A stretch of 64,000 nt of DNA. It comes from Dictyostelium discoideum (lineage: Eukaryota). Made by a program: the position numbers and the translations under genes. Positions within the stretch are counted from its first letter, which is position 1, and every line of letters starts with the position of its first letter. Where the stretch lies: the NCBI GenBank assembly GCA_000004695.1, contig CM000151.3, positions 4,640,001 through 4,704,000 on the forward strand, written 5' to 3'. Shown here one piece after another: positions 339 through 59,285 of this stretch. The notes under the pieces are model-generated. The model made no database searches. It was not told the DNA's origin and saw only the letters and a program-made list of their open reading frames with translations.

Positions 339-379
<41 letters not shown>

Positions 380-399
380 TTGGTTGGAATGCCAAGCTT

Positions 400-970
400 C
401 AGTGGCAGAATGTTCAGTCAACAATCAAACAGTAAATAATACAATTTCAATCATTCATTAAAAATTTATTATTTTATCAAAGCAACAAATTCTGATCAGT
501 GCGACTATATCTTTTGAAATTTATTAGCAGCAGTTGATTATTTTATGGTTGCAACAACTCTAATAGGATGAATTCTAGTAACAAACAGATAATCTACTTG
601 TCGATGGCAAATATTGTTCAACATTCACAACTAATTGATAGAACTGATTCAATAGAAGTTTTATATCAACTCTTGATATTTGCCAATATGTTTGGACCAA
701 TAATAATAACAATGGTAAAGAAGAATCAGATGAGCCAATATTAAAAGTTGGTAATAATGTTTAGGTTCATTCAATACTGGAAAACTTAGAAACCTCCAAT
801 AAAGTGAGTGATGATGGTAATACATCTTTTTGAATTGGTTGTTCGTAACTTGGTAATTTTAATATCTCTATCGATGATGGTAGATCTCCAACATTTAATG
901 GTAGATCGAATTCATATATTATTAATTTTTTAAGATTATTCGGTAGGAGACTATTGTTTAATTTGAAATT
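400..970 (-). pseudogene. Degenerate 3' continuation of FNIP-repeat gene copy 1 (FNIP-like repeats broken by stops and frameshifts)
   Basis: The minus-strand translation past the TAA at 971-973 continues FNIP-like (NFKLNNSLLPNNLKKLIIYEFDLPLNVGDLPSSIEILKLPSYEQPI..., then LPLKLGIPTKF). It matches the C-terminus of copy 3 but carries several stops and frame changes. Confidence 0.4.
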
Positions 971-3249: not shown

Positions 3250-3530
3250 CTGAGTCAGTTTTTAAAAAACAAAAAAAAAAAAATTAATGTGACAAATTAT
3301 TAAATAGTTATTTATTGAAATATTTATTTTCGTATGTGCGACTGACTGTGTCTTTTATTTTTGATATTTTCTTTGTATGATTTTGGTTTATTATTTGAAA
3401 TAAATAAATTCATTGGAAGTGCCACCATTTAAATTTTTTTTTTTTTTTTGGGAAAAAACAACATGTGTATTTGGATCCATTTGAAAAGATTGTAAAAAGG
3501 ACTACACAGGCTTATAAAAAGGTTTTTTTT
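2338..3530. mobile_element. Unclassified insertion between FNIP copies, with nested inverted repeats and flanking direct repeats (MITE-like or hairpin element)
   Basis: A GC-rich island lies at 2340-2425 (ccaagccatgatcgcttagaagggcttg...agcccggacagcaggacagccc). Direct repeats aaaaaggacCacacaggcttataaaaag sit at ~2485-2512 and ~3495-3522. Inverted 15-mers atttgtcacattaat / attaatgtgacaaat sit at 2739-2753 and 3283-3297. Inverted tgactcagacat / atctgagtca copies sit at 2786, 3094 and 3246. Tandem 29-bp repeats (aaatgtaataaacgtattaaaaaaatttt, x3) lie at 2535-2630. There is no ORF. The insertion interrupts homology between FNIP copy 1 and the other copies. Confidence 0.4.
2830..3060. repeat. Near-perfect palindrome (two 67-bp inverted arms, 96-bp spacer) with a GC-rich taccggccggta core
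   Basis: The arm at 2830-2897 (ggcttgaatattttgtcggcaagctgccgaaagaattaatgtgatcatttttaccggccggtagtttt) is the reverse complement of the arm at 2994-3060 (aaaactaccggccggtaaaaatgtcacattaattctttcggcagcttgccgacaaaatattcaagcc). The only difference is a single indel. Confidence 0.85.
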
Positions 3531-3739
3531 AAAAAAAATTAAAAAAAAAAAATAAAAACAATAAAAAAAACGATAAAAACATTACAATTTTTTAATTTTT
3601 TGTTAATTAATGTTCTTTTAAATAAAAAAAAATATATAAAAATAAAAAATAAAAAAAATAAAATAAAACAATTACATCAAAACAGTTGTTTTAAAAATTA
3701 ATATTTTTATTTTATATTTTTTTTTTTTTAAAATTGTTC

Positions 3740-5821
3740 ACTTTGTAATAGTTTTACATGTTTGATAAAGAAATGTGTGGGAATGGAATTTATAAAATCT
3801 AAACTATCACCACAGATATAAATAAATTCAAATGAAGGTGGCCATATTAAATCTGGTAATTCTTTACAACCATAACCTGTAAAATAAAATTATTTTAAAT
3901 TTGGTGGCAATGCATCTCTATCCATACTTGAATTGAAAAAATCTGAAACGCCTAATAAAGTGAGTGATAATGGAAATAAATCTTTTTAAATTGGTTGTTT
4001 GTACTGTGGTAGCTTTAATACCTCTATTGATGATGGTAAATCTCCAACATTTAATGGTTGATTAAAATTAAATAATTTTAATTTTTTAAAATTATTTTGT
4101 AAGAGACAATCATTAAATTCCAAATAATCTGAAACTGCTAAAGTTAATCTTGAAATAATATTTGGGAATTTTACATTGGTTAAATCCACCTGTTTTGCAT
4201 CAAAGTTCAATGATGTTAAATTTTTAAGAAAATAAAAAGAGTGGTTATCTAATTGGGAAGGAGGACTAAAATCCATTATTTTTAGTTTTTGAATTGTTTT
4301 CGGTAATATTTTGATATCAGAGAATGTATATACTGATAAATTTGTAATTGCTTGTGGGAAGACATCTCGAGGAAAGTTTTGGTTGCTACCAAGATGTAGA
4401 GTTTTAATTGAGATAGGTAATGAATTTGATTTAATTATACTATTGCAGAAACTGAATTTCAACGATGTAACATTGTGTGAAATCATACCTTTTTCAATGG
4501 TCTGGTCAAAAAAAGAATCAAACTCTAATGATGTTGTACCACCTGGTATCGATGTTGAGTCTAATTTAGCACCACCCTTAGAATCAAAATAATAATGAAG
4601 AGTTGTTACCGATTTTGGTATTGATCCATATTCGATTACTCCTTTATATTTTGGATCCAATATTAATGATGTAAGTGATGGTGGTATTTCGTCTCTATGA
4701 ATTGAATGTTGAAAAGATTTTCCAAAAGTTAAAGATTTTAATGTTCTTGGTAACCATGGTATACCATTTTTGTCACTTAATGATTGATTAAAATCCTTGC
4801 CAAAATCAATGGATGTTAGACTATTACCAATGATATTACGAGTTAATTGTTGATTAAAATGCGAAAATATAATGGATTTACATGTATCTGGTATCCAGTG
4901 GTCTACTAGTATAATATCTGAACATCTCATCTCTATCTTTTCCACAATTTGTGGTATTGGATAACAATTTGAGTTATGTTGGTCGCATAAGCCATTAAAA
5001 CTCAATAACTTGACATTATTAAAATAATTTCTGTATTTATATGTTGAAATATTATTTCTCTTTATTTCAAATGCTATGATTATGATTATTATATATTCTA
5101 AGATGAAATAAAATTTGATCCCTGATAAATATATTTCCCCAAACTTTTTTAAATAATTTATAATTATTATCAATTGTTTGATCTATTTGTTGATTTGTTC
5201 TTATTTTATTATTTAAATCAGGTTGTGGTTTTAAAATCAATTGATTTAAATTATTACTATTATCATTATTTTTAATGGTGATATGATGATTTAAATTATT
5301 TTTAATGATTATAAGTATTGAACAATCGAATGCAATTCTTTTATTTCTATTGTTAATTGTGTCATTACTATTATTGTTATTATCTGTAATTGAATGATTA
5401 TATATAACTTCATCATTAGAATTATTGGTTGTAAATGTGTTTTTTAAATTTTGAATATGATTATTTAGTGTTTGAAATTGCTGATCATTTAATCCTTTTA
5501 AATCATTTAAATGCTTTTTTTCCTCTTCTTCTTGTCTATATAAATATGTTTTTATAAATTAGTATAATAATAAAAATAATAATAAAAATAATATATAAAA
5601 CAATCAAAGTGTGTTAATGCATACAATATTTTTTTTCTTTTTTTTATTTGAAGGTTTTGATTATTGTTTTTGTAATTATTGATACTATTACAATAATCTT
5701 GAAGTTGGTTGAATGTAATGTTTAAATTATTAATTGATAATATTAATAAACAATTTAAAAACTCTTCATTGTTTTTATTATTATAATTATTAATTAAATA
5801 AGAGTAAATTATGTTATCCAT
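3740..5821 (-). pseudogene. FNIP-repeat family gene, copy 2 (frameshifted, with premature stops)
   Basis: Exon 1 runs 5821..5625 (MDNIIYSYLINNYNNKNNEEFLNCLLILSINNLNITFNQ..., donor GTATGC). Exon 2 carries the conserved LFKKVWGNIFIRDQILFHLRIYNN block in one frame, then shifts frame into ORF 3986..5173 (indels relative to copy 3 around NHNHSI*). FNIP homology continues past the TAA at 3986 to ~3740 with two more in-frame stops (KQPI*KDLFPLSLTLLGVSDFFNSSMDRDALPPNLK*FYFTGYGCKELPDLIWPPSFEF). Confidence 0.5.
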
Positions 5822-5991
5822 TTGATATTAAAAAAAAAAAAAAAAAAAAATCTCCAAAAAAAAAAAAAAAAAAAAAAAAAAATATCTCCAAAAAAAAAAA
5901 AAAAAGCTTTTTTTTTTGGGGCAGTGTTTTTTTTTTTTATTTTTAAATTTTTATTTTTAAACTTTAATAACAAGAAAAACATTTTATAATA

Positions 5992-8072
5992 TTATTTTAA
6001 TCTAATATGGTTGGTAAAGAAGTCAAGATCAATTGAATTGATGAAATTAAAGCTGGCTTCTGAGATATAAGCAAATTCAAATGAAGTTGGCCATATTAAA
6101 TTTGGTAATTTTCTAAGTTCACGACCATGAAAATAAAATAATTTTAAATTTGGTGGTAATGCATCTCTTTGTATGGTTGAAATGCAATGATCTTGTAATT
6201 TTAAAACATTGAGTGAAGAAGGTAAATCACCATTTTTTATTGGGTAATCATAATTGGGTAATTTTAAAACTTCAATTGAAGATGGTAAATCACCATTGGC
6301 AATTGGGTGGTTAAATTCTTTAAGTTTTAATTTTTTGAGTGAATTTGGGAAGATTCCATTACTCAATTTTAAATTTGGGCAACTTAATACTATTCTTAAA
6401 AGTGTATTTGGAAAAACCCCTTCTTCTAAAACTGAATCAGATAGTTTTTCAATTTTTAATGATGTTAAATTTCTAAAATTATTAAATGAGATTTTTGATA
6501 AATTAAAAAAACTTGTTATTTTTAAAGATTCTATTGATTTTGGTAAAAAGCAACTATGATAATCACCATAAATTGATAATTTTTTAATATTAGGTGGTAA
6601 GATATTATCACTATCCAATTCAATTGAACCTATTCTTAATGTTTTAATTGATAGAGGTAATGAATTTGGTTCAATTTCAATTTTAGAAATATTATCAATT
6701 TCCAAAGATGTTACATTAATGGGAATCATATCTTTTTTGATTGTTTGATTAAAATAACAACCAATTTTTAATGAGGTTACACCTTTACTAATTGATTTTG
6801 TATCAAAATGATTTTTTCTGATTGTGAAAAATTCATAATGAAGAGTTGTAACTGATTTTGGTATTGATTCATTTAAGATTATTCCTTGATATTCAGAGTC
6901 CAAAAATAGTTCTGTCAATGATTGAGGTAATTCATTTCTTTGAATTGTTTGTTGAAATGATTGACCTAGACTTAAAGTTTTAAGTTTCTTGGGTAACCAT
7001 GGTAATCCATTTGAATCACTCAATGGTTGATTAAATGAATTTCCAAAGAAAATTGTAGTCAAACTATTACTAATTATATTTCTATTTAATTTTTGTTGAT
7101 TAAAGTTATGAAAATAAATTGATTTACATGTATCTGGTATCCAATGATCACCTATTGTAATACTTGAACAATCAACTTCAACTCTTTCAACTCCATATGG
7201 TAATGGATAAAAACGATTTGTTAATGGGGTAAATCCAATTTCGCCATTATTATCCTCAATTATTAATTTAACATTTTTAAAATAATTTCTATATTTATAT
7301 GGTGTAATCTCTTTTATTGGAATCCCATAAAAACCACAATTAAGATTATTATATATTTTAAGATGAAATATAATTTGTTTCCTAATAATCATATTTCCCC
7401 AAACTCTTTTAAATAAATTATAATTTCTTTCAAAGCTGTTTGAATTATTTTTTAATTTATTATTATTATTATTATTTAAAATTTCTTTAGAATTATTAAT
7501 AAAAATACAAGTTTCTTTAAAATTATTATTATTATTATTATTATTAATTGTGATGAGATGATTTAAATTATTTTTAATGATTAAAAGTATTGAACAATCA
7601 AATGCGATTCTTTTATTTCTATTGTTAATTGTTTCATTATTATTATTATCTGTAATTGAATGTTTATATATAATTTCTTCATTGAAAATTTTGCTATAGA
7701 AGATATTTAAAATTTGTGTATGATAATTTACTATTTCAAACTGTTGTTCATTTAATCCTTTAAAATCACATAAAAAATCATTTTTTTCATTTCTATTTAT
7801 AAAACATAATAATAATATTAATTTTTATTAGTGATAAAAATAAAATTTATTATAAGGGTATATATGTATATTTTTTTTTTTATTTATTTAAATATTTATA
7901 CAAACAATAATGTTTTTCTTTTTAAATTATTATTATAACAATAATTTAATAATTCATTAAAAGTTATATTTAAATTATTAATTGATAATATTAATAAACA
8001 ATTTAAAAATTCTTCATCATTGTTACCGCAATCATAATTATTAATTAAGTATGAATAAAAAATACTCTCCAT
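5992..8072 (-). CDS. FNIP-repeat family protein, copy 3, apparently intact (~655 aa). CDS join(8072..7906, 7792..5992).
   Basis: Exon 1 is MESIFYSYLINNYDCGNNDEEFLNCLLILSINNLNITFNELLNYCYNNNLKRKTL (phase-2 donor GTTTGT at 7905). Acceptor is aaatag at 7794-7793. Exon 2 reads through NRNKRIAFDCSILLIIKNNLNH...LFKRVWGNMIIRKQIIFHLKIYNN into ORF 5992..7392. That ORF holds repeated FN(Q/H)P(L/I)..G.LP.SL..L.FG..FNQ units. Confidence 0.6.
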
Positions 8073-51676: not shown

Positions 51677-53839
51677 CTAATTATTTAATTTAAGTTTTTC
51701 AAAAGCATTTTGTAATCTAATACGATCACCAATTGTTGAAGTTAAATGTGATAAATCAATTGAAGATAAACTTGAAAGAAGATCAAAAGTTACAAGTTCA
51801 TTTTCAAAAGTTTGAATTAAATGTGGAAGTTGATTATCTTTTAAAATGGTCCTAACTGATAAAACACGATCAATTTCAATTTTAATTGCATTATGAATTT
51901 CAGTGGTACGTGTACCAGCACCTTTTAAAACTTTTTCAAGTAAAATAGTATCTGGAATTGAAAGTAATTCATTACCAGATAAACAATATTGATAAAATTC
52001 AGGATTTGAAGTTACAACCTCTGGACAATTCATTCTAAAGTATAACCATGATAATAGATTTCTTGGTGTCCAATCTTGAATATAACGTGGAATCTTTGAC
52101 AGTTCATCCAATGGATTTGGTAGGATTACACGTTTTGGATCTGGTAATACTATATTAACCGGAAAGATTGTATATAAATCAATACAATCCAAGATATCTA
52201 AAACTGCTCTTACTTTATACTCGATTTTAATGATACCAGATTGATAAATTGAATTCAATAGAGTTTGTGGTGTTTCCATTACAACGATTTGAGTTGATTG
52301 TTGATTTTGTTGAATTTTTGGAAAGAAATTTTTTGAAACTTTTAAAACTTGTGTTGGTACACCTTTTTCGTGTTGAATTGAAATGGTGCGTTGTAATTCC
52401 AATTCAATCTTTTTAACCTTTTTTTTACTACTATTATTGACGTGAACTTGTAATTCAATATCTTCACCTGGATAATAGGAATTCTTTGGTGCCGTGATTG
52501 TCATTTCAATAGTACCACCTGTCAATGGTGATTTAGAACATTTCTCATGGATTTGTGATTGAGTCATACGATGAACTGTATCTTCGATATTTACAACGGT
52601 AATCTCTCTTTCCAATTGAATATCTGGTAGATTTACAATATCAGCATTGAATTGGAATCTATAGAGTACTTTATAGTTTCCAACACCATCGATTGAGGAA
52701 TTACAATGTTTTGGAATAAAGAATTCAAATGGGTAGATATGTTTACCAATATCCAATGCAACCTTTTGATTTTGTGAATTTGGTGAACTTGGTCCAATTG
52801 ATGTGTGTAGTAAATTTCTTAAATCTTGAATCAATTCTTTTTGTTTTTTACCACAAACTGATGTTTTACCCTTTAATGAAACGAAAAGACTTCTAACTAC
52901 AATTGGTTGATTAACATATAAAACCAATGATGCTCTAACTGGTTCACCTGTAACATATATGGTTTTTTGATAAAGATCATTTGGTAATATAAATTCTGCT
53001 TCTAATACTGTTGGATGAGTTTTCAAATAAATTGGTTCATAATAAACTGGTGGTGGTAATTGACCATTGGAACTAATTAAATTTTGTTGTTGAATTTGAT
53101 TTTGAATTATATTTGGATTACCATCTGGACTAATATGTTGTTGTAATGGATATGGTGGATTAAATTGAAATCCAACACGAACATAACCTTTTTTATCTAA
53201 ATTTAACCATTTATCAGTTTGTCCAAATGTTGCTGCTTCCCTTAATATTGCTATTGGTAATTGTACTTTACCTAAACTATCATGTTTACCAAATCTATCC
53301 CAATCTAAGCATTCAACTTCAATAATTGCATTAGGATCATTAACATTAATTATACCACTTTTTTTTTAAAAAAAATAATAAATAAAATTAATATTTTTTT
53401 ATTCTTTATTTTTATTTTTTAAAAAAAAAAAAAAAAAAAAATGTGTTTGAACACACACCAAAATAGTTTATAGAGAGTGATAAAACTATTATTAAACTTA
53501 CATATCAAATGATTGATTCCAAACTGGTGATAAAGTATTTTTAATGGTTTCAGTTTTAAAACTATTACCATTAAATTTTAATTTAACATATGGATCACTA
53601 CTCGATCCACCATTATCTGAACCTTTTAATTCTTTGCCTTCAACAATAAATAATCTTAATCCTTTATATATAAAGTTAAAATTGTATATTATTATTATTA
53701 TTATTAAGAAAAAAAAAAAAACTTTATTGCAAAAAATAATATACATGTATATATTCACTAAACAAATAAAAAAAAATAAAAAATAAAAAAATTAAAAAAA
53801 ATAATAAAAAATTATATTGCACATACCTCTGTTATCCAT
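51677..53839 (-). CDS. Arrestin-domain protein with N-terminal C2 domain and C-terminal SAM domain(s) (AdcB/AdcC-like), ~617 aa. CDS join(53839..53827, 53661..53502, 53357..51677).
   Basis: Exon 1 is 13 nt (ATGGATAACAGAG, donor GTATGT). Exon 2 GLRLFIVEGKELKGSDNGGSSSDPYVKLKFNGNSFKTETIKNTLSPVWNQSFD (C2; donor GTAAGT). Exon 3 continues the C2 domain (GIINVNDPNAIIEVECLDWDRFGKHDSLGKVQLPI), then arrestin N/C-like sequence, then SAM-like LSWLYFRMNCPEVVTSNPEFYQYCLSGNELLSIPDTILLEKV. Confidence 0.7.
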
Positions 53840-53883
53840 TTCCAAATATACTAAATGATCTGAAAGCAAATTTTAAAAAATTT

Positions 53884-53922
<39 letters not shown>

Positions 53923-54309
53923 GGGTTTGAAAAATTAACAAGGGGTTGCCATTAACAAAAAAAAAAAAAAAAAAATTTTTGAGATTTATTAATGACAAAC
54001 ACCCCCTTTGAAAATCAAAAATATCCTTTTTTTTTTTTTTTTAAAAAAATTTTTTTTTAATTTATTTTTTTTGGTCATGGTTGGATTAAAATTTTCAACC
54101 GACCTAAAACACTCATTTTTTATTATTATCTTTTTTTTTTTTGAATTTTTTATTTGAAATCAACTCGATTTTCCACCACAAACAATTTAATAAAAAAAAA
54201 AAATTAAAAATAAATAAATGAGAAAAAAATCAAAAAAATCAAAATAATTAGAAAAACCAAAAAAAAAAAAAAAATAAAATTAAAAATAAAATTGAAAATA
54301 AAATTAAAA

Positions 54310-54359
<50 letters not shown>

Positions 54360-54414
54360 TTTAAAATTAAATAACCCAACATCTTCACAAAATCCAAATA
54401 AAAAATAAAAAATT

Positions 54415-54490
54415 GACAATTTGGGAACAAGGTTTATGTGATTGATCTTCTGGTATCAGAGTTTGTTGTATCAGTTAATTATGACCAGTA
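54415..54490 (+). pseudogene. Decayed partial duplicate of the 5' coding part of the PLAC8 gene (in-frame stops; lacks the parent's first intron)
   Basis: tgggaacaaggtttatgtgattgAtcttctggtatcagagtttgttgtatcagttaattatgaccag|taagt parallels exon1+exon2 of the gene at 56078 (tgggaacacg / gtttatgcgattgcacttcagatatcagagtttgctgtatctcttatttatggccacaag|taact). It contains TGA/TAA stops. Confidence 0.5.
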
Positions 54491-55214
54491 AGTATTTAAA
54501 AATTTAAATATTTAAATAATTTGATTAAATCTCTTATTAATTTTATTTTTTAAAAAATAATAATTATAATAATAACAAGAATAATAGATAATATCTATTT
54601 TATAAAGTACACTAAAAAGATAAATTTGATGGATAATTATCAATTTAAAAAAAAAAAAAAAAAAAAAGATATTTTTTTTTTTTTATTATGACGTGTTAAA
54701 ATTTTAAAAGAAAAAAAAAGTTGTGTTTACTTCACCCATAGAAGTTTCCACATACTGATAATTACTTTTTTTTTTTTTTTTTTGATAAATTGAGATTGTA
54801 TTATAATACTACTAGTATAATACAACCTCAATAAAAATAAAATGAAATATCTGATTAAACCAAACAAAGGTATTTTTTATTTTATGATATTTTACAATTC
54901 TTGAAATATATTTCACTTGAATAATTTAAATAATAAAATTTTTTAGTATGAGTGAAAAAAAAAAAAAAAATCAATCTGATTTAAAAGGATATTTTTATGT
55001 TTATCATAGGTTGAATGTGTGAATAAAATTTTATTTTTTGTAGTGTTAAGCAATGAATAGGTAAGAAACGAGTTTGATTTTTTAATATAATTTCAAATTT
55101 ATTTAAATATATTAATAATAAAATCTAAAAAATCAACATTGTTTTGAAATTATTCAAAAAAAAATAATCAATCTCCCAAATATAATTCAGAAAAATTTGC
55201 AGACTCATTCTTTG

Positions 55215-55263
<49 letters not shown>

Positions 55264-55485
55264 TATTTATTATTTTTTTGTGACGTGAGCAAATTTTTAA
55301 AAAAATTATCAAAATGTGCACAATAACAGTAATTGGTTGTGTAATCCCACTTTATATATTCTCACACACGAATCTTTTCAATGATTATATATTTATATAT
55401 ATATTTACAACTCTATACTATTTATTTATTATTTTTTAAAAACAAAAAAATTTAGTTATGTATGAAAACTTAAAAAAAAAAAAAG

Positions 55486-55522
55486 TTGCTTTGGCTTAGT
55501 TGGTTAAGCGCTTGCCAAGCCA
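55486..55522 (+). other. tRNA 5'-half-like fragment (acceptor/D-arm/anticodon-stem-like) followed by an A-tract; not a complete tRNA gene
   Basis: gttgctttggcTTAGTTGGTTAAGCGCttgccaagcc has a D-loop-like AGTTGGTTAA flanked by GCTT/AAGC. No T-arm (GGTTCGA.TCC) or 3' acceptor half is present. It is flanked by 17-bp direct repeats agttatgtatgaaaact at ~55456 and ~55553. Confidence 0.3.
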
Positions 55523-56077
55523 AAAAAAAGTTAGTTTTTCCAATTCAAAAAAAAGTTATGTATGAAAACTAAATTTTCAATAAAGTTATGAAAAAAAAAC
55601 TAAATTTGATCTTTTTAATGGAAAAATTATTAAAATTTTAATGGTCAATAACTGAAAAAATATTTTAAGAAAAAAAAAAGATATTTTTCTCAAAAAAATA
55701 GGGGAGTGTTGACAAGCATAAATTTTTTTGTACAGTTTTTCATCATTGTCTTAACCGCAAAAAATTTAAAATAAAAAAAAAAAAAAAAAAAAATTTCATC
55801 ACTAAATTCATCATATCTACCCGGGAAAAAAACACAAAAAAAAAAAAAAAAAATGAAAATTTAAAAAAATAATTTAAAATATCCATCATTTTGATATTTT
55901 AAAACTCGTATTGCCAAGAAAAAATTTATTTAATTTTGAATTAAATTATTTATTTTATTTTTCCTCTTTTTTTTTTTTTCTTACGAAAAAAAACTATTTT
56001 TAAAGACAGTAGACTACTTTTTTTTTTTTTTTTTTCTAATCATTGTTAGGTTACACACAAATATATATAAATACATA

Positions 56078-56774
56078 ATGTCAAATTGGGAACACGGTAA
56101 ATATTTTTTTGTTTATATGATGCCATCACATGGCACAAAAAAATAAAAAAAATAAAAAAAAAATAAAAAAGAAACAAAATAAACCAAAAGAAAATATAAT
56201 CGTCATGCACAATATTATTAATATAGTTCTAACGGTTATAAATTACTTTTTTTTTTTTTTTTTTTTTTTTTTATCATCATCATAATTATTTTTATAACCT
56301 ACTTTTTTTATCATAATAAATAGGTTTATGCGATTGCACTTCAGATATCAGAGTTTGCTGTATCTCTTATTTATGGCCACAAGTAACTATCTATAATAAT
56401 TATGATATTTTTAAAATAAATTAATTGAAATATTAACATTTATCTCTGTTTTCTTTAATAATAACTAATTTTTCACATTTATCTTTGTTATTTCTAATGA
56501 AAACCAAATTTTTGACCCCAAGCTTCAAGTTATGCAACAAAGAGCAACCGTAGATGGTCGTCAATGTGAGATTACAGATTGCCTCTTTACCGCTTTATGT
56601 TTCCCATGTGTTACTTGTTTAACTCGTTCACAAATCAGAGAAAAACACGGTATTGAAGGTTCAGGTGTTATGGATTGTTTAACCGTTTGTTATTGTACCC
56701 TTTGTGTTATTCACCAACAAACCATGCAACTCCAAGCTAAAGGTGAAAAACCATCTGGTCTTTTCATGAACTAA
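56078..56774 (+). CDS. PLAC8 (DUF614, cysteine-rich) family protein, ~109 aa, 3 exons. CDS join(56078..56096, 56324..56382, 56523..56774).
   Basis: MSNWEH|GLCDCTSDIRVCCISYLWPQ|LQVMQQRATVDGRQCEITDCLFTALCFPCVTCLTRSQIREKHGIEGSGVMDCLTVCYCTLCVIHQQTMQLQAKGEKPSGLFMN*. Donors GTAAAT and GTAACT; acceptors aaatag and cccaag. Typical PLAC8 Cys pattern (GLCDC...CC...CLF..LC.PC...Q..RE). Confidence 0.75.
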
Positions 56775-57576: not shown

Positions 57577-57728
57577 TTTGACCCCAAGCTTGAGAAAAAC
57601 ACGGTATTGAAGGTTCGGGTGTTGTGGATTGTTTGACCGTTTGTTATTGTACCCTTTGTGTTATTCACCAACAAACCATGCAACTCCAAGCTAAAGGTGA
57701 AAAACCATCTGGTCTTTTCATGAACTAA
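57577..57728 (+). pseudogene. Partial duplicate of the last PLAC8 exon with a ~118-bp internal deletion
   Basis: tttgaccccaagctt|gagaaaaacacggtattgaaggttcGggtgttGtggattgtttGaccgtttgttattgtaccctttgtgttattcaccaacaaaccatgcaactccaagctaaaggtgaaaaaccatctggtcttttcatgaactaa is near-identical to 56511-56774 apart from the deletion and 3 substitutions. Confidence 0.7.
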
Positions 57729-57739
57729 ATTATTTTTTT

Positions 57740-59285
57740 TCCCCAAATAAAAAATAAAAAATAAAATAAATTAAAATTATTAAATACAAAGAATATGAAA
57801 AAGGAAAAAAGAAAGAGGAATTTTGGAAATTCGATTTTAGTTTATACTCTGTCCACATAATAAAAATTATGAAGTTTTTAGAAAACTTGGTACTATGGTT
57901 TGAAATAAACAAGAAATATTTTAAGAATTATGTTATTGTGAAAGGTGCGATGATCCAAAATTGGTTAAAATATCTAAAGAACAGTTTAAACAAATTAAAA
58001 ATACGTACTCATTGGTTGCTAAAAATCATAAAGTAAACCCAACATTTATTGAAAAAGAAATTGCAAGATATAATAATGAAAATTCAATGTACATAATAAT
58101 AGTTCATAAAGATTTTGTTTTTGTGGTAACGAAGACCCTATCATAGAATTAATCCCTTATTCATTAAATAATAAAACAAGAAGGGAAGAAATTGATTAAA
58201 AAGACGCTACTTTTGCAACATTAAAACAAATGTTTAGAATGCTTAAAGTTTGAATATAAAAAGCATTCCAGATAAATCAATGTCCAAATCTAAAGAAACA
58301 ATTAATGAATGATCAAAGTTAAAAACAAATGTTGAAAATTCATCAGAAGTTTTTGATGCATTAAAAAACGGTTCACTCTACACATCAATGTTATTTTAAA
58401 GTTGTTTGTTCAATCGATCGATTGTAAGAATTTAGAAATCCAGATTTAAATTTCAATGACCATCATACTAGCAAGTGCATTGGTTGTAATATAGGATATA
58501 TTTTAACAAAATTATTCACAACAATTGATATTATTTGCAATAGTTAACCAATTTCAACAAACTCTGAAAGTATTAAGGAAATCAAGAAAAAAAATGAAAT
58601 CACTCACCGATAAATATTTTAATAAATTTGAAATTAGCTTTTTAGATATTTGTGGCCATTCCATTAGTTTTAATTCAGCATCATTATTGCATGGTGGAAC
58701 TTCTATTTCTACTATTTTAGAATCAATTTCAAAATGTCCAACATGCTCATCAATAGAAAGTATTAAATATGGATTAAAAGCTTTTGTTACCATGAATTCA
58801 GATAAAATCGAATACTGAAGATGAAACGGAGAAATTTTTTCACCAATCTTACCATCAGAATTGAATGAATTATTTAAATTCGTAGCAATTCATTATCTTT
58901 TAAAATTCAAACCATAACTACATGTAATCATAAAATAAAAACAAACAATACATAAATAAATAAATAATTTAGGTTCTTCAGCTAATTTAGATGATGTCCT
59001 TTTTCTTGTTGATGAGTCCAATTGAGCAACAGTATTTGGGTGTGATGTTTTTATTTCAACTCTTCTTGGTTTATAAAGAGTTTAAATTTCCTAATCACCA
59101 TAGTTGAAAGGAGGTGTAATGGTAGTTGAAGAGGAAACTATTTTTGAGTATTTAGTGGAACTACTCTTGAATTTGATTTTTTGATTAAACTAGTGTTTAA
59201 TGATCTTGTTTTAAAACCACTAGATTGATTTTAATTTCTAAATCTAATTCTGATTTTAAGTTTTTGACTTTAATCATATTTGCAG

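Follow-up and report, generated by a model that had tools for sequence, protein, structure and literature searches.

Introduction

Chimeric retropseudogenes made when the reverse transcriptase of a long interspersed nuclear element (LINE) switches template onto a small RNA polymerase III (Pol III) RNA are established in mammals and reptiles (PMC4476161) and in a fungus (PMC2104539). In the 'Group IV' small nuclear RNA (snRNA) chimeras, U6/L1 together with U6/L2 and U6/RTE, the copy of the small Pol III RNA lies on the 5' side and is joined at its U-run to a 5'-truncated LINE end with an A-tail, both parts share one orientation, and a single target-site duplication (TSD) of 10–20 bp surrounds the whole (PMC4476161). 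In the WEIRD RNA/MGL LINE chimeras (MINE) of Magnaporthe grisea, template jumping by a non-metazoan LINE has likewise joined the copy of a non-coding RNA to the 3' end of a LINE (PMC2104539). In the established mechanism, the nicked target primes reverse transcription on the poly(A) tail of the LINE RNA itself, and the enzyme afterwards moves to the 3' end of the small Pol III RNA and copies it as far as its 5' end. Here we describe an 83-bp insert in a 64,000-nucleotide stretch of Dictyostelium discoideum chromosome 2 (assembly GCA_000004695.1, contig CM000151.3, positions 4,640,001 to 4,704,000; the whole stretch is called the window below), which we read, with a probability of roughly 0.85, as a chimeric retropseudogene made by the non-long-terminal-repeat (non-LTR) retrotransposon TRE5-A. 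The copied RNA would derive from the A/B-box locus 18638/22168 of the extrachromosomal ribosomal DNA (rDNA) palindrome.

LINE template-switch chimeric retropseudogenes are a known kind of element, and no report of one in Dictyostelium was found in the searchable literature library. The insert shares the architecture of U6/L1 chimeras and differs from them in its LINE, the tRNA-gene-targeting TRE5-A of an amoeba, which would contribute only 7–8 nt; in its RNA partner, which would be a barely expressed tRNA-like unit on extrachromosomal rDNA instead of an snRNA; and in its apparent integration away from the normal targets of TRE5-A. MINE is a multi-copy family, whereas the insert is known from one copy and has an RNA partner of known genomic origin. 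With canonical TRE5-A insertions it has in common the 3' terminus (…TTATCCAATTC + oligoA), a TSD of variable length and possible extra nucleotides at the 5' junction; unlike them, with their position ~47 bp upstream of a tRNA gene or A/B-box locus and their 5' end facing the target, it has no such target and almost no TRE5-A sequence.

Results

Structure of the insert

The 83-bp insert lies between two copies of a 17-mer, and all of its parts point in one direction. From the comparisons described below, its order would be TSD, leader and +1 to U5 of a Pol III RNA, last 7–8 nt of TRE5-A, oligo(A) and TSD. Its features are as follows, with donor positions numbered from the +1 G of locus 18638/22168:

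55454..55470, + strand: left TSD copy AGTTATGTATGAAAACT, an exact 17-mer with 2 copies only in the window
55471..55484, + strand: T + A13 at the 5' junction, matching the donor T + A5 directly upstream of the +1 G
55485..55521, + strand: 37-mer GTTGCTTTGGCTTAGTTGGTTAAGCGCTTGCCAAGCC, corresponding to donor +1 to +37, 37/37 identical to both copies on the AX4 BF floating contig
55522..55539, + strand: A8 + GTTAGTTTTT, corresponding to donor +38 to +54 (A7 in the donor), ending at the first T5 of the donor
55540..55546, + strand: CCAATTC, matching the last 7 nt of TRE5-A RNA (C-module end), with the same terminus in the TRE5-A loci L009 and L010
55547..55553, + strand: oligo(A) tail, A7 (A8 counting the A at 55554); TRE5-A copies have A12–A13 at the same place
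55554..55570, + strand: right TSD copy AGTTATGTATGAAAACT, identical to 55454–55470

The right repeat begins with the A at 55554, which possibly belongs to the tail, so that the TSD measures 16 or 17 bp. The 37-mer is unique in the window and contains the +1 G and an A box, TGGCTTAGTTGG (55492–55503). A preliminary description of the site had taken this 37-mer for a tRNA 5' half set between A-tracts and direct repeats, and the elements it listed (the 37-mer, both A-tracts, A13 and A8, and the perfect repeat of 17 bp) are all present at 55454–55570. Its textbook D-arm is correct as far as the GCTT and AAGC arms go; the loop, given there as AGTTGGTTAA, counts two A's twice, and the stretch reads GCTT-AGTTGGTT-AAGC, with the canonical A21 missing.

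Neither the 17-bp repeat nor a hairpin is statistically special alone. The window contains 12 exact direct repeats of at least 15 bp at 20–300 bp spacing outside low-complexity sequence, and the hairpin energy of the insert is not better than that of shuffles; with z-scores of −0.3 to −1.4, a significant RNA hairpin was rejected. The feature stands above chance because three orthologous loci carry a single 17-mer, without the intervening 83 bp. As for the source of the inserted sequence, a 26-mer of the insert gave 0 matches in metagenome and GTDB genome collections, and the exact D-arm 20-mer TGGCTTAGTTGGTTAAGCGC occurred in 0 of 185,579 prokaryotic species genomes (GTDB) and in 0 Joint Genome Institute (JGI) metagenome contigs; a prokaryotic or environmental source was rejected on these results. 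A local templated insertion was rejected as well, since no informative stretch of 13 nt or longer from the insert has another copy within the 64 kb.

Empty sites in related strains

Orthologous loci were fetched from other assemblies using the protein of the neighbouring PLAC8-family gene and its close orthologues. They include D. cf. discoideum (L001), two loci labelled D. discoideum (L002 and L003; GCA_054859385 and GCA_054859355) and L004 (GCA_054883475). L001, L002 and L003 align with the window through both flanks and are empty sites: each has one 17-mer-like copy, GTT(A/G)TG(TG)nTATGAAAA(C)T, which runs directly into the common flank AAATTTTCAATAAAG, and no insert. The insert is present in identical form in L004, which matches the window at 99%. 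Over 3.3 kb of multiple alignment the insert is the only indel of at least 12 bp in which the window has extra sequence, and the other indels are of microsatellite type. Because of the empty sites in L001–L003, the 17-bp repeat is a genuine TSD, which bears out the preliminary description's comparison of the repeat to one. Both copies in the window have the same short (TG)n state, unlike every empty allele, which would follow from the duplication of one allele at insertion. A longer tandem duplication, the alternative that the preliminary description had itself raised, was rejected, as a degenerate third copy at 55584–55608 is ancestral, present in all strains and unrelated to the insertion.

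Pairwise distances (window–L004, 0.7%; L002–L003, 2%; window–L002/L003, ~9.5%; L001 to all others, ~13.5%) place L001 outside ((window, L004), (L002, L003)), and the insert is found only in the window and L004. Since L001 lies outside the other four, one insertion on the window + L004 branch is the parsimonious history. Separately, we observed that L002 and L003 differ from the window (53300–56600) at ~9.5% of aligned non-coding sites, which is large for one species and may reflect cryptic lineages.

An rDNA-palindrome locus as donor

A string search through supplementary files located the donor: the AX4 genome FASTA (supplement of PMC7919456) contains the 37-mer twice, in reverse complement, on the BF floating contig DDB0220052; a search of article main texts with the insert string gave 0 matches. 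In sense orientation the donor reads ...TTTTTTTTGCT AAAAA GTTGCTTTGGCTTAGTTGGTTAAGCGCTTGCCAAGCC AAAAAAA GTTAGTTTTT GAAAAATAACTGAAGGGTCGCGGGTTCGATTCCCCGG..., and the bases leading into +1 are ...GCTAAAAAG(+1). Window positions 55480–55539 match it at 59/60, with one 1-nt indel in an A-run, and the homology ends exactly after the T5. We assign the donor to the A/B-box locus 18638/22168 of the extrachromosomal rDNA palindrome because its flanks contain the primers Pal-18638-rev and Pal-06 of PMC5391098.

This locus has a tRNA-gene-like +1 G, A box and B box and otherwise no tRNA-gene similarity (Spaller et al. 2017, PMC5391098). Natural and marked TRE5-A elements integrate 45–47 bp upstream of it, and weak transcripts detected by reverse-transcription PCR (RT-PCR) and circularized RT-PCR (cRT-PCR) have 3' ends after T5/T6 runs (PMC5391098). 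In the donor, the first T5 sits between the A box and the B box (GGTTCGATTCC, at about +77) and looks like a Pol III terminator, and ARAGORN did not call the donor as a tRNA with introns allowed and thresholds relaxed. The window copy has the identical +1 G, A box and following 54 nt. Unlike the donor, which has the B box, continues further and serves as a TRE5-A landing site, it ends at the first T5, has no B box, lies on a chromosome arm and is flanked by a TSD. The apparent tRNA half would thus correspond to the first 54 nt of a putative Pol III unit of tRNA-like type, together with a short A-leader. This replaces the tRNA source proposed earlier: the 37-mer is the first part of a 59-nt copy of locus 18638/22168, and the 3' boundary of that copy is the T5 run, not an anticodon-loop cut. 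No chromosomal retrocopy is reported in the paper describing the rDNA A/B-box locus (PMC5391098).

A match to the TRE5-A terminus in the insert

The CCAATTC + A7–8 found between the T5 and the right repeat is absent from the donor. Homologues of TRE5-A were searched with the open reading frame 2 (ORF2) seed DDB_G0270860_RTE from the AX4 protein file (PMC7919456 supplement), and their loci were fetched; a full-length TRE5-A.1 next to LysCUU-2 has been placed in the chromosome 1 interval containing DDB_G0270860 (PMC5391098). In L009, TRE5-A lies head-to-head beside a tRNA-Asp gene (373–445, minus strand), the canonical arrangement, and ends ...GGAGAAGCAACTAATAATTGCGTTATCCAATTC + A12. The strain closest to the window supplied L010, in which the ORF2 C-terminus is followed by a TRE5-A 3' fragment whose terminus is identical to that of L009. 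The terminal CCAATTC is located at 6263–6269 and followed by A12 in L009, and at 7253–7259 and followed by A13 in L010, both in the form ...GCAACTAATAATTGCGTTATCCAATTC(A)n. AX4 contigs have the same TRE5-A end, ...TTATCCAATTC(A)n, and a related TRE5 family (L011) ends ...CCCATTC. A reading of one AX4 occurrence of CCAATTC as an LTR end was rejected, as L009 and L010 show it to be the end of the TRE5-A C-module.

In the window, the frequency of CCAATTC is 1.3e-4 per position, and the heptamer precedes 1 of 407 A-runs of at least 7 nt, namely the insert's own, and the match of CCAATTC plus A-tail by chance is estimated at about 1e-4 to 2.5e-3. Extreme 5' truncation of TRE5-A does occur, because an AX4 contig holds a 15-nt TRE5-A remnant 35–49 nt upstream of a tRNA-Met-like sequence. 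Apart from the insert itself, no junction of the rDNA-type sequence with CCAATTC appeared in the two donor copies, the window, the 11 loci or the initial 400 kb of the AX4 FASTA.

Two further observations concern TRE5 sequences elsewhere. On the AX4 2F floating contig, two tandem tRNA-Met-like 5' halves without T-arms each have a conserved upstream flank, and one of them has, at −35 to −49, the 15-nt remnant just mentioned, which consists of no more than the last 15 nt of TRE5-A + A11; judged from these sequences, the contig appears to show extremely 5'-truncated TRE5-A insertions and tRNA-half relics at other places in the genome. In L010, a nested region downstream of a TRE5-family ORF2 (5935–7272) contains long ACCTTTAAAAT-type tandem repeats, a 5'-truncated TRE5-A 3' end and, on the opposite strand, a B-box-like GGGATTCGATCCCCC.

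Absence of a tRNA gene at the insertion site

In the 64-kb window, ARAGORN found 0 tRNA genes, Rfam at gathering thresholds 0 tRNAs, and a search for the T-arm/B box (GGTTCGAWTCC, up to 1 mismatch) 0 matches, in agreement with the earlier observation that the tRNA-like piece has no T-arm. No tRNA-like match was present at 55330–55453 on either strand. A relic of a tRNA hidden on the left of the insert, at the canonical −47 position, was considered and rejected: only a weak A-box-like word occurs there, it is unconserved in other strains, and it has no Rfam hit. Nor does the window contain a TRE5-A C-module. Because no tRNA gene, B box or tRNA-like hit was found in the window or at the expected position on the left, the integration is apparently off-target, or at a cryptic Pol III site not seen. 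The link to TRE elements drawn in the preliminary description survives in the TRE5-A 3' end (CCAATTC + oligoA) of the insert; the tRNA-gene beacon that went with it is lacking throughout the 64 kb, and the retroelement remnant placed ~1.3 kb away was not found, that region holding conserved promoter blocks and a PLAC8-like pseudo-exon.

Several identities for the insert were rejected. For a functional or split tRNA, ARAGORN, Rfam and the B-box search were all negative; no complete tRNA was called at the site, and the earlier opinion that it is not a gene stands. For a small nucleolar RNA, only sub-threshold H/ACA matches driven by A/T runs were obtained. Dictyostelid Class I RNAs have a 5'/3' terminal stem, an 11-nt motif, a CUGU end and a Dictyostelium upstream sequence element (DUSE) ~60 nt upstream (PMC7919456), while the insert has no complementary 3' end and no CTGT, and the DUSE-like TCCCACTT lies 133 nt upstream. 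A DUSE-driven non-coding RNA was dismissed on the same ground of layout, as a TGTG box (55312–55318) and the DUSE-like word (55345–55352) are present in the wrong order and at the wrong spacing.

Genomic setting

The insertion site lies in a 2.2-kb divergent intergenic region (53830–56080) of the AT-rich window, 526–626 bp upstream of the start codon of a PLAC8-family gene. This nearest gene (56080–56774) has three exons and encodes a PLAC8/DUF614 protein, the spliced prediction being identical to D. discoideum AX4 EDR41100.1 (P0011); the opposite neighbour, on the minus strand, is an arrestin/C2-domain gene. A PLAC8-like pseudo-exon at 54410–54490, upstream of the real gene, resembles exons 1 + 2 of the 56080–56774 gene (83% over 58 nt), without the first intron and with in-frame stops, and every D. 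discoideum-group strain examined has it. The last PLAC8 exon is found a second time at 57592–57796. On account of these two copies, the PLAC8 locus is probably a small tandem array with decayed members. The arrestin–PLAC8 intergenic region is ~2.2 kb long in the window and L001–L004 and ~0.4–0.5 kb long (about 3520–4000) in L005, L006 and L007, which are D. citrinum, D. dimigraforme and D. cf. discoideum GCA_054859235; the longer form, pseudo-exon included, would be a lineage-specific expansion.

Within this region, a 67-nt block (A-run, GATATTT, ATTAT, GACGTG, AAATTTT) occurs at 54647–54713 and 55241–55305 with 85% identity, ~590 bp apart, and has a short third echo at 55670–55688; the arrangement points to an old segmental duplication within the intergenic region. 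A DUSE-like word, ACCCATAG, stands at 54736–54743, and ~50 nt beyond it comes a 16-bp inverted repeat that is near-perfect, TTGAGATTGTATTATA...TATAATACAACCTCAA (54791–54835), a layout resembling that of a small hairpin RNA gene; L001–L003 conserve neither the DUSE word nor the inverted repeat's 3' arm. An exact TGTG box, AAATGTG (55312–55318), and the DUSE-like TCCCACTT (55345–55352) lie 120–170 nt upstream of the insertion site, and the latter reads ACCCACTT in L002/L003.

Discussion

The features of the insert are those of a LINE template-switch chimera. One TSD surrounds the whole chimera and the site is empty in relatives; the 3' part is a 5'-truncated LINE end with an A-tail in sense orientation, of only 7–8 nt; and the 5' part is a colinear copy (59/60) of a Pol III unit, with the RNA end presumably at the T5. 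Retroposition with template switching, which had already been considered as an origin in the preliminary description, best explains the combination of an rDNA-locus copy with a TRE5-A terminus. The TRE5-A endonuclease would have nicked the intergenic site, and target-primed reverse transcription would have started on the oligo(A) tail of TRE5-A RNA, copying its last 7–8 nt (CCAATTC). A short Pol III transcript of locus 18638/22168 may then have become the new template, the reverse transcriptase moving onto its 3' end and copying it from the U5 backwards, past the +1 G and into the A-leader, after which a second nick 16–17 bp away, followed by repair, would have produced the TSD. We infer the RNA intermediate and the order of the template switch, and the RNA would have ended at the first T5 rather than been a longer one entered internally. 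The T + A13 would be a Pol III 5' leader whose A-run has expanded, or else non-templated additions at the 5' junction, from which the extra A's would derive in the one case or the other. Reported TSDs of TRE5-A measure 10–16 bp (PMC9012585) and non-templated 5' additions are frequent for this element (PMC5391098), so both the 16–17-bp TSD and the extra 5' A's are compatible with it. Without a B box, the insert is most likely inert DNA.

Several points weigh against a TRE5-A-made chimera. The match to TRE5-A, although terminal and specific, spans only 7–8 nt. The integration of TRE5-A is known to be strict, at ~47 bp upstream of tRNA genes or A/B-box loci, and off-target events could not be demonstrated experimentally (PMC5391098); with no tRNA and no B box, the site departs from the canonical target rule (~47 bp, 37–211 bp, upstream of a tRNA gene or A/B-box locus). 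The TSD, at 16–17 bp, is at or just above the upper end of the reported range. Published transcripts of the donor locus are ~230 nt long, extend past the first T5 and are undetectable on northern blots (PMC5391098), and the proposed template would be a donor RNA species of 55–60 nt. The comparisons also leave room for a contiguous genomic donor carrying ...GTTAGTTTTTCCAATTCAAAA.

A copy of a genuine tRNA 5' half, arising from a cleaved and oligoadenylated tRNA fragment, was the natural first thought, given the A-box consensus, a 37-nt length like that of tRNA halves, and tRNA as the top Rfam family for a 53-nt stretch, with the alignment starting at model position 1. We now regard it as scarcely credible, however, as that hit scores 11.2 bits against a gathering threshold of 29 (E = 3.9 in the 53-nt search) and aligns only model positions 1–26, the anticodon loop would lack U33, A21 is missing from the D-arm, and the parent tRNA expected for the 37-mer did not appear among the anticodon-arm regions of 33 D. 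discoideum tRNA families (family-specific primer regions). The 37-mer moreover runs colinearly 17 nt further into a non-tRNA rDNA-palindrome locus that ARAGORN rejects and for which its describers report no tRNA-gene similarity beyond the A and B boxes (PMC5391098). That the insert is ancestral and was lost from other lineages by precise deletion between the 17-bp repeats is very improbable. Direct-repeat recombination or slippage can remove exactly one repeat and the spacer, but the distance tree would require at least 2 independent precise deletions, the repeat copies are identical and their (TG)n state is absent from all empty alleles, and the identity to the donor is 59/60 despite 9–14% divergence of the flanks.

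Two other routes to the same sequence seem improbable, though less so than these. The insert could be a fragment of extrachromosomal rDNA, or of a chromosomal rDNA-like repeat, captured as DNA when a double-strand break was closed by end joining or templated repair, with CCAATTC + A8 as chance filler. The rDNA palindrome is abundant, at about 100 copies per cell (PMC5391098), and a 25-nt near-repeat, CCAAgcC-A8-GTTA / CCAAttC-A8-GTTA (family D6), looks like error-prone templated repair; however, simple end joining is not expected to give a 16–17-bp TSD, the fragment ends coincide with the start of the Pol III unit and its first T-run, the supposed filler is the TRE5-A terminus with its A-tail in the correct orientation, and no local template exists in the 64 kb. 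A chance origin of CCAATTC, or its addition as a post-transcriptional 3' extension, would equally be needed if an oligoadenylated Pol III transcript was reverse-transcribed directly, by template choice with no switch. Poly(A)-extended snRNA pseudogenes are indeed common in mammals (PMC4476161), and the TRE-derived piece is only 7 nt long; against this stands the exact TRE5-A terminal heptamer between the U-run and the A-tail, found before a single one of the 407 A-runs of the window. On balance, a TRE5-A-made chimeric retropseudogene remains our preferred reading of the insert.

A wider proposal, which we advance only tentatively, is that ordinary intergenic sites are open to TRE5-A and that its template switching can mobilise Pol III transcripts, which would give rise to units with a tRNA-like head and a LINE tail; the chromosome 2 copy would then be one of a wider, unrecognised TRE-made class. 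If true, off-target integration with mobilisation of Pol III RNA would be natural evidence of short Pol III RNAs from rDNA A/B-box loci.

In common with tRNA-derived short interspersed nuclear elements (SINEs), the insert has a tRNA-like A-box head, a LINE-derived 3' end and an A-tail. Unlike them, it has an A box but no B box, a LINE tail of 7 nt, a single known copy and no sign of transcription or further mobility; the other copies seen are only full-length rDNA-type donors. To our knowledge, no SINE is known in the Dictyostelium genome. A unit with a tRNA-like head and a LINE tail is the proposed first step of SINE birth, and tRNA-derived SINEs are believed to have their origin in an architecture such as that of the insert. 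Only one such copy, of 83 bp and probably inert, is known, and its general interest is accordingly moderate.

For the biology of TRE5-A, the insert would provide a natural example of TRE5-A-type integration apparently away from a tRNA gene, off-target integration having been left unresolved by Spaller et al. 2017, and with it the range of LINE template-switch chimeras would come to include Amoebozoa and a LINE that is target-specific. For the rDNA palindrome, the use of a transcript of locus 18638/22168 as a template for reverse transcription, as the copied sequence suggests, would be independent support for a real Pol III unit, one that would start at or just upstream of the +1 G and be able to stop at the first T5.

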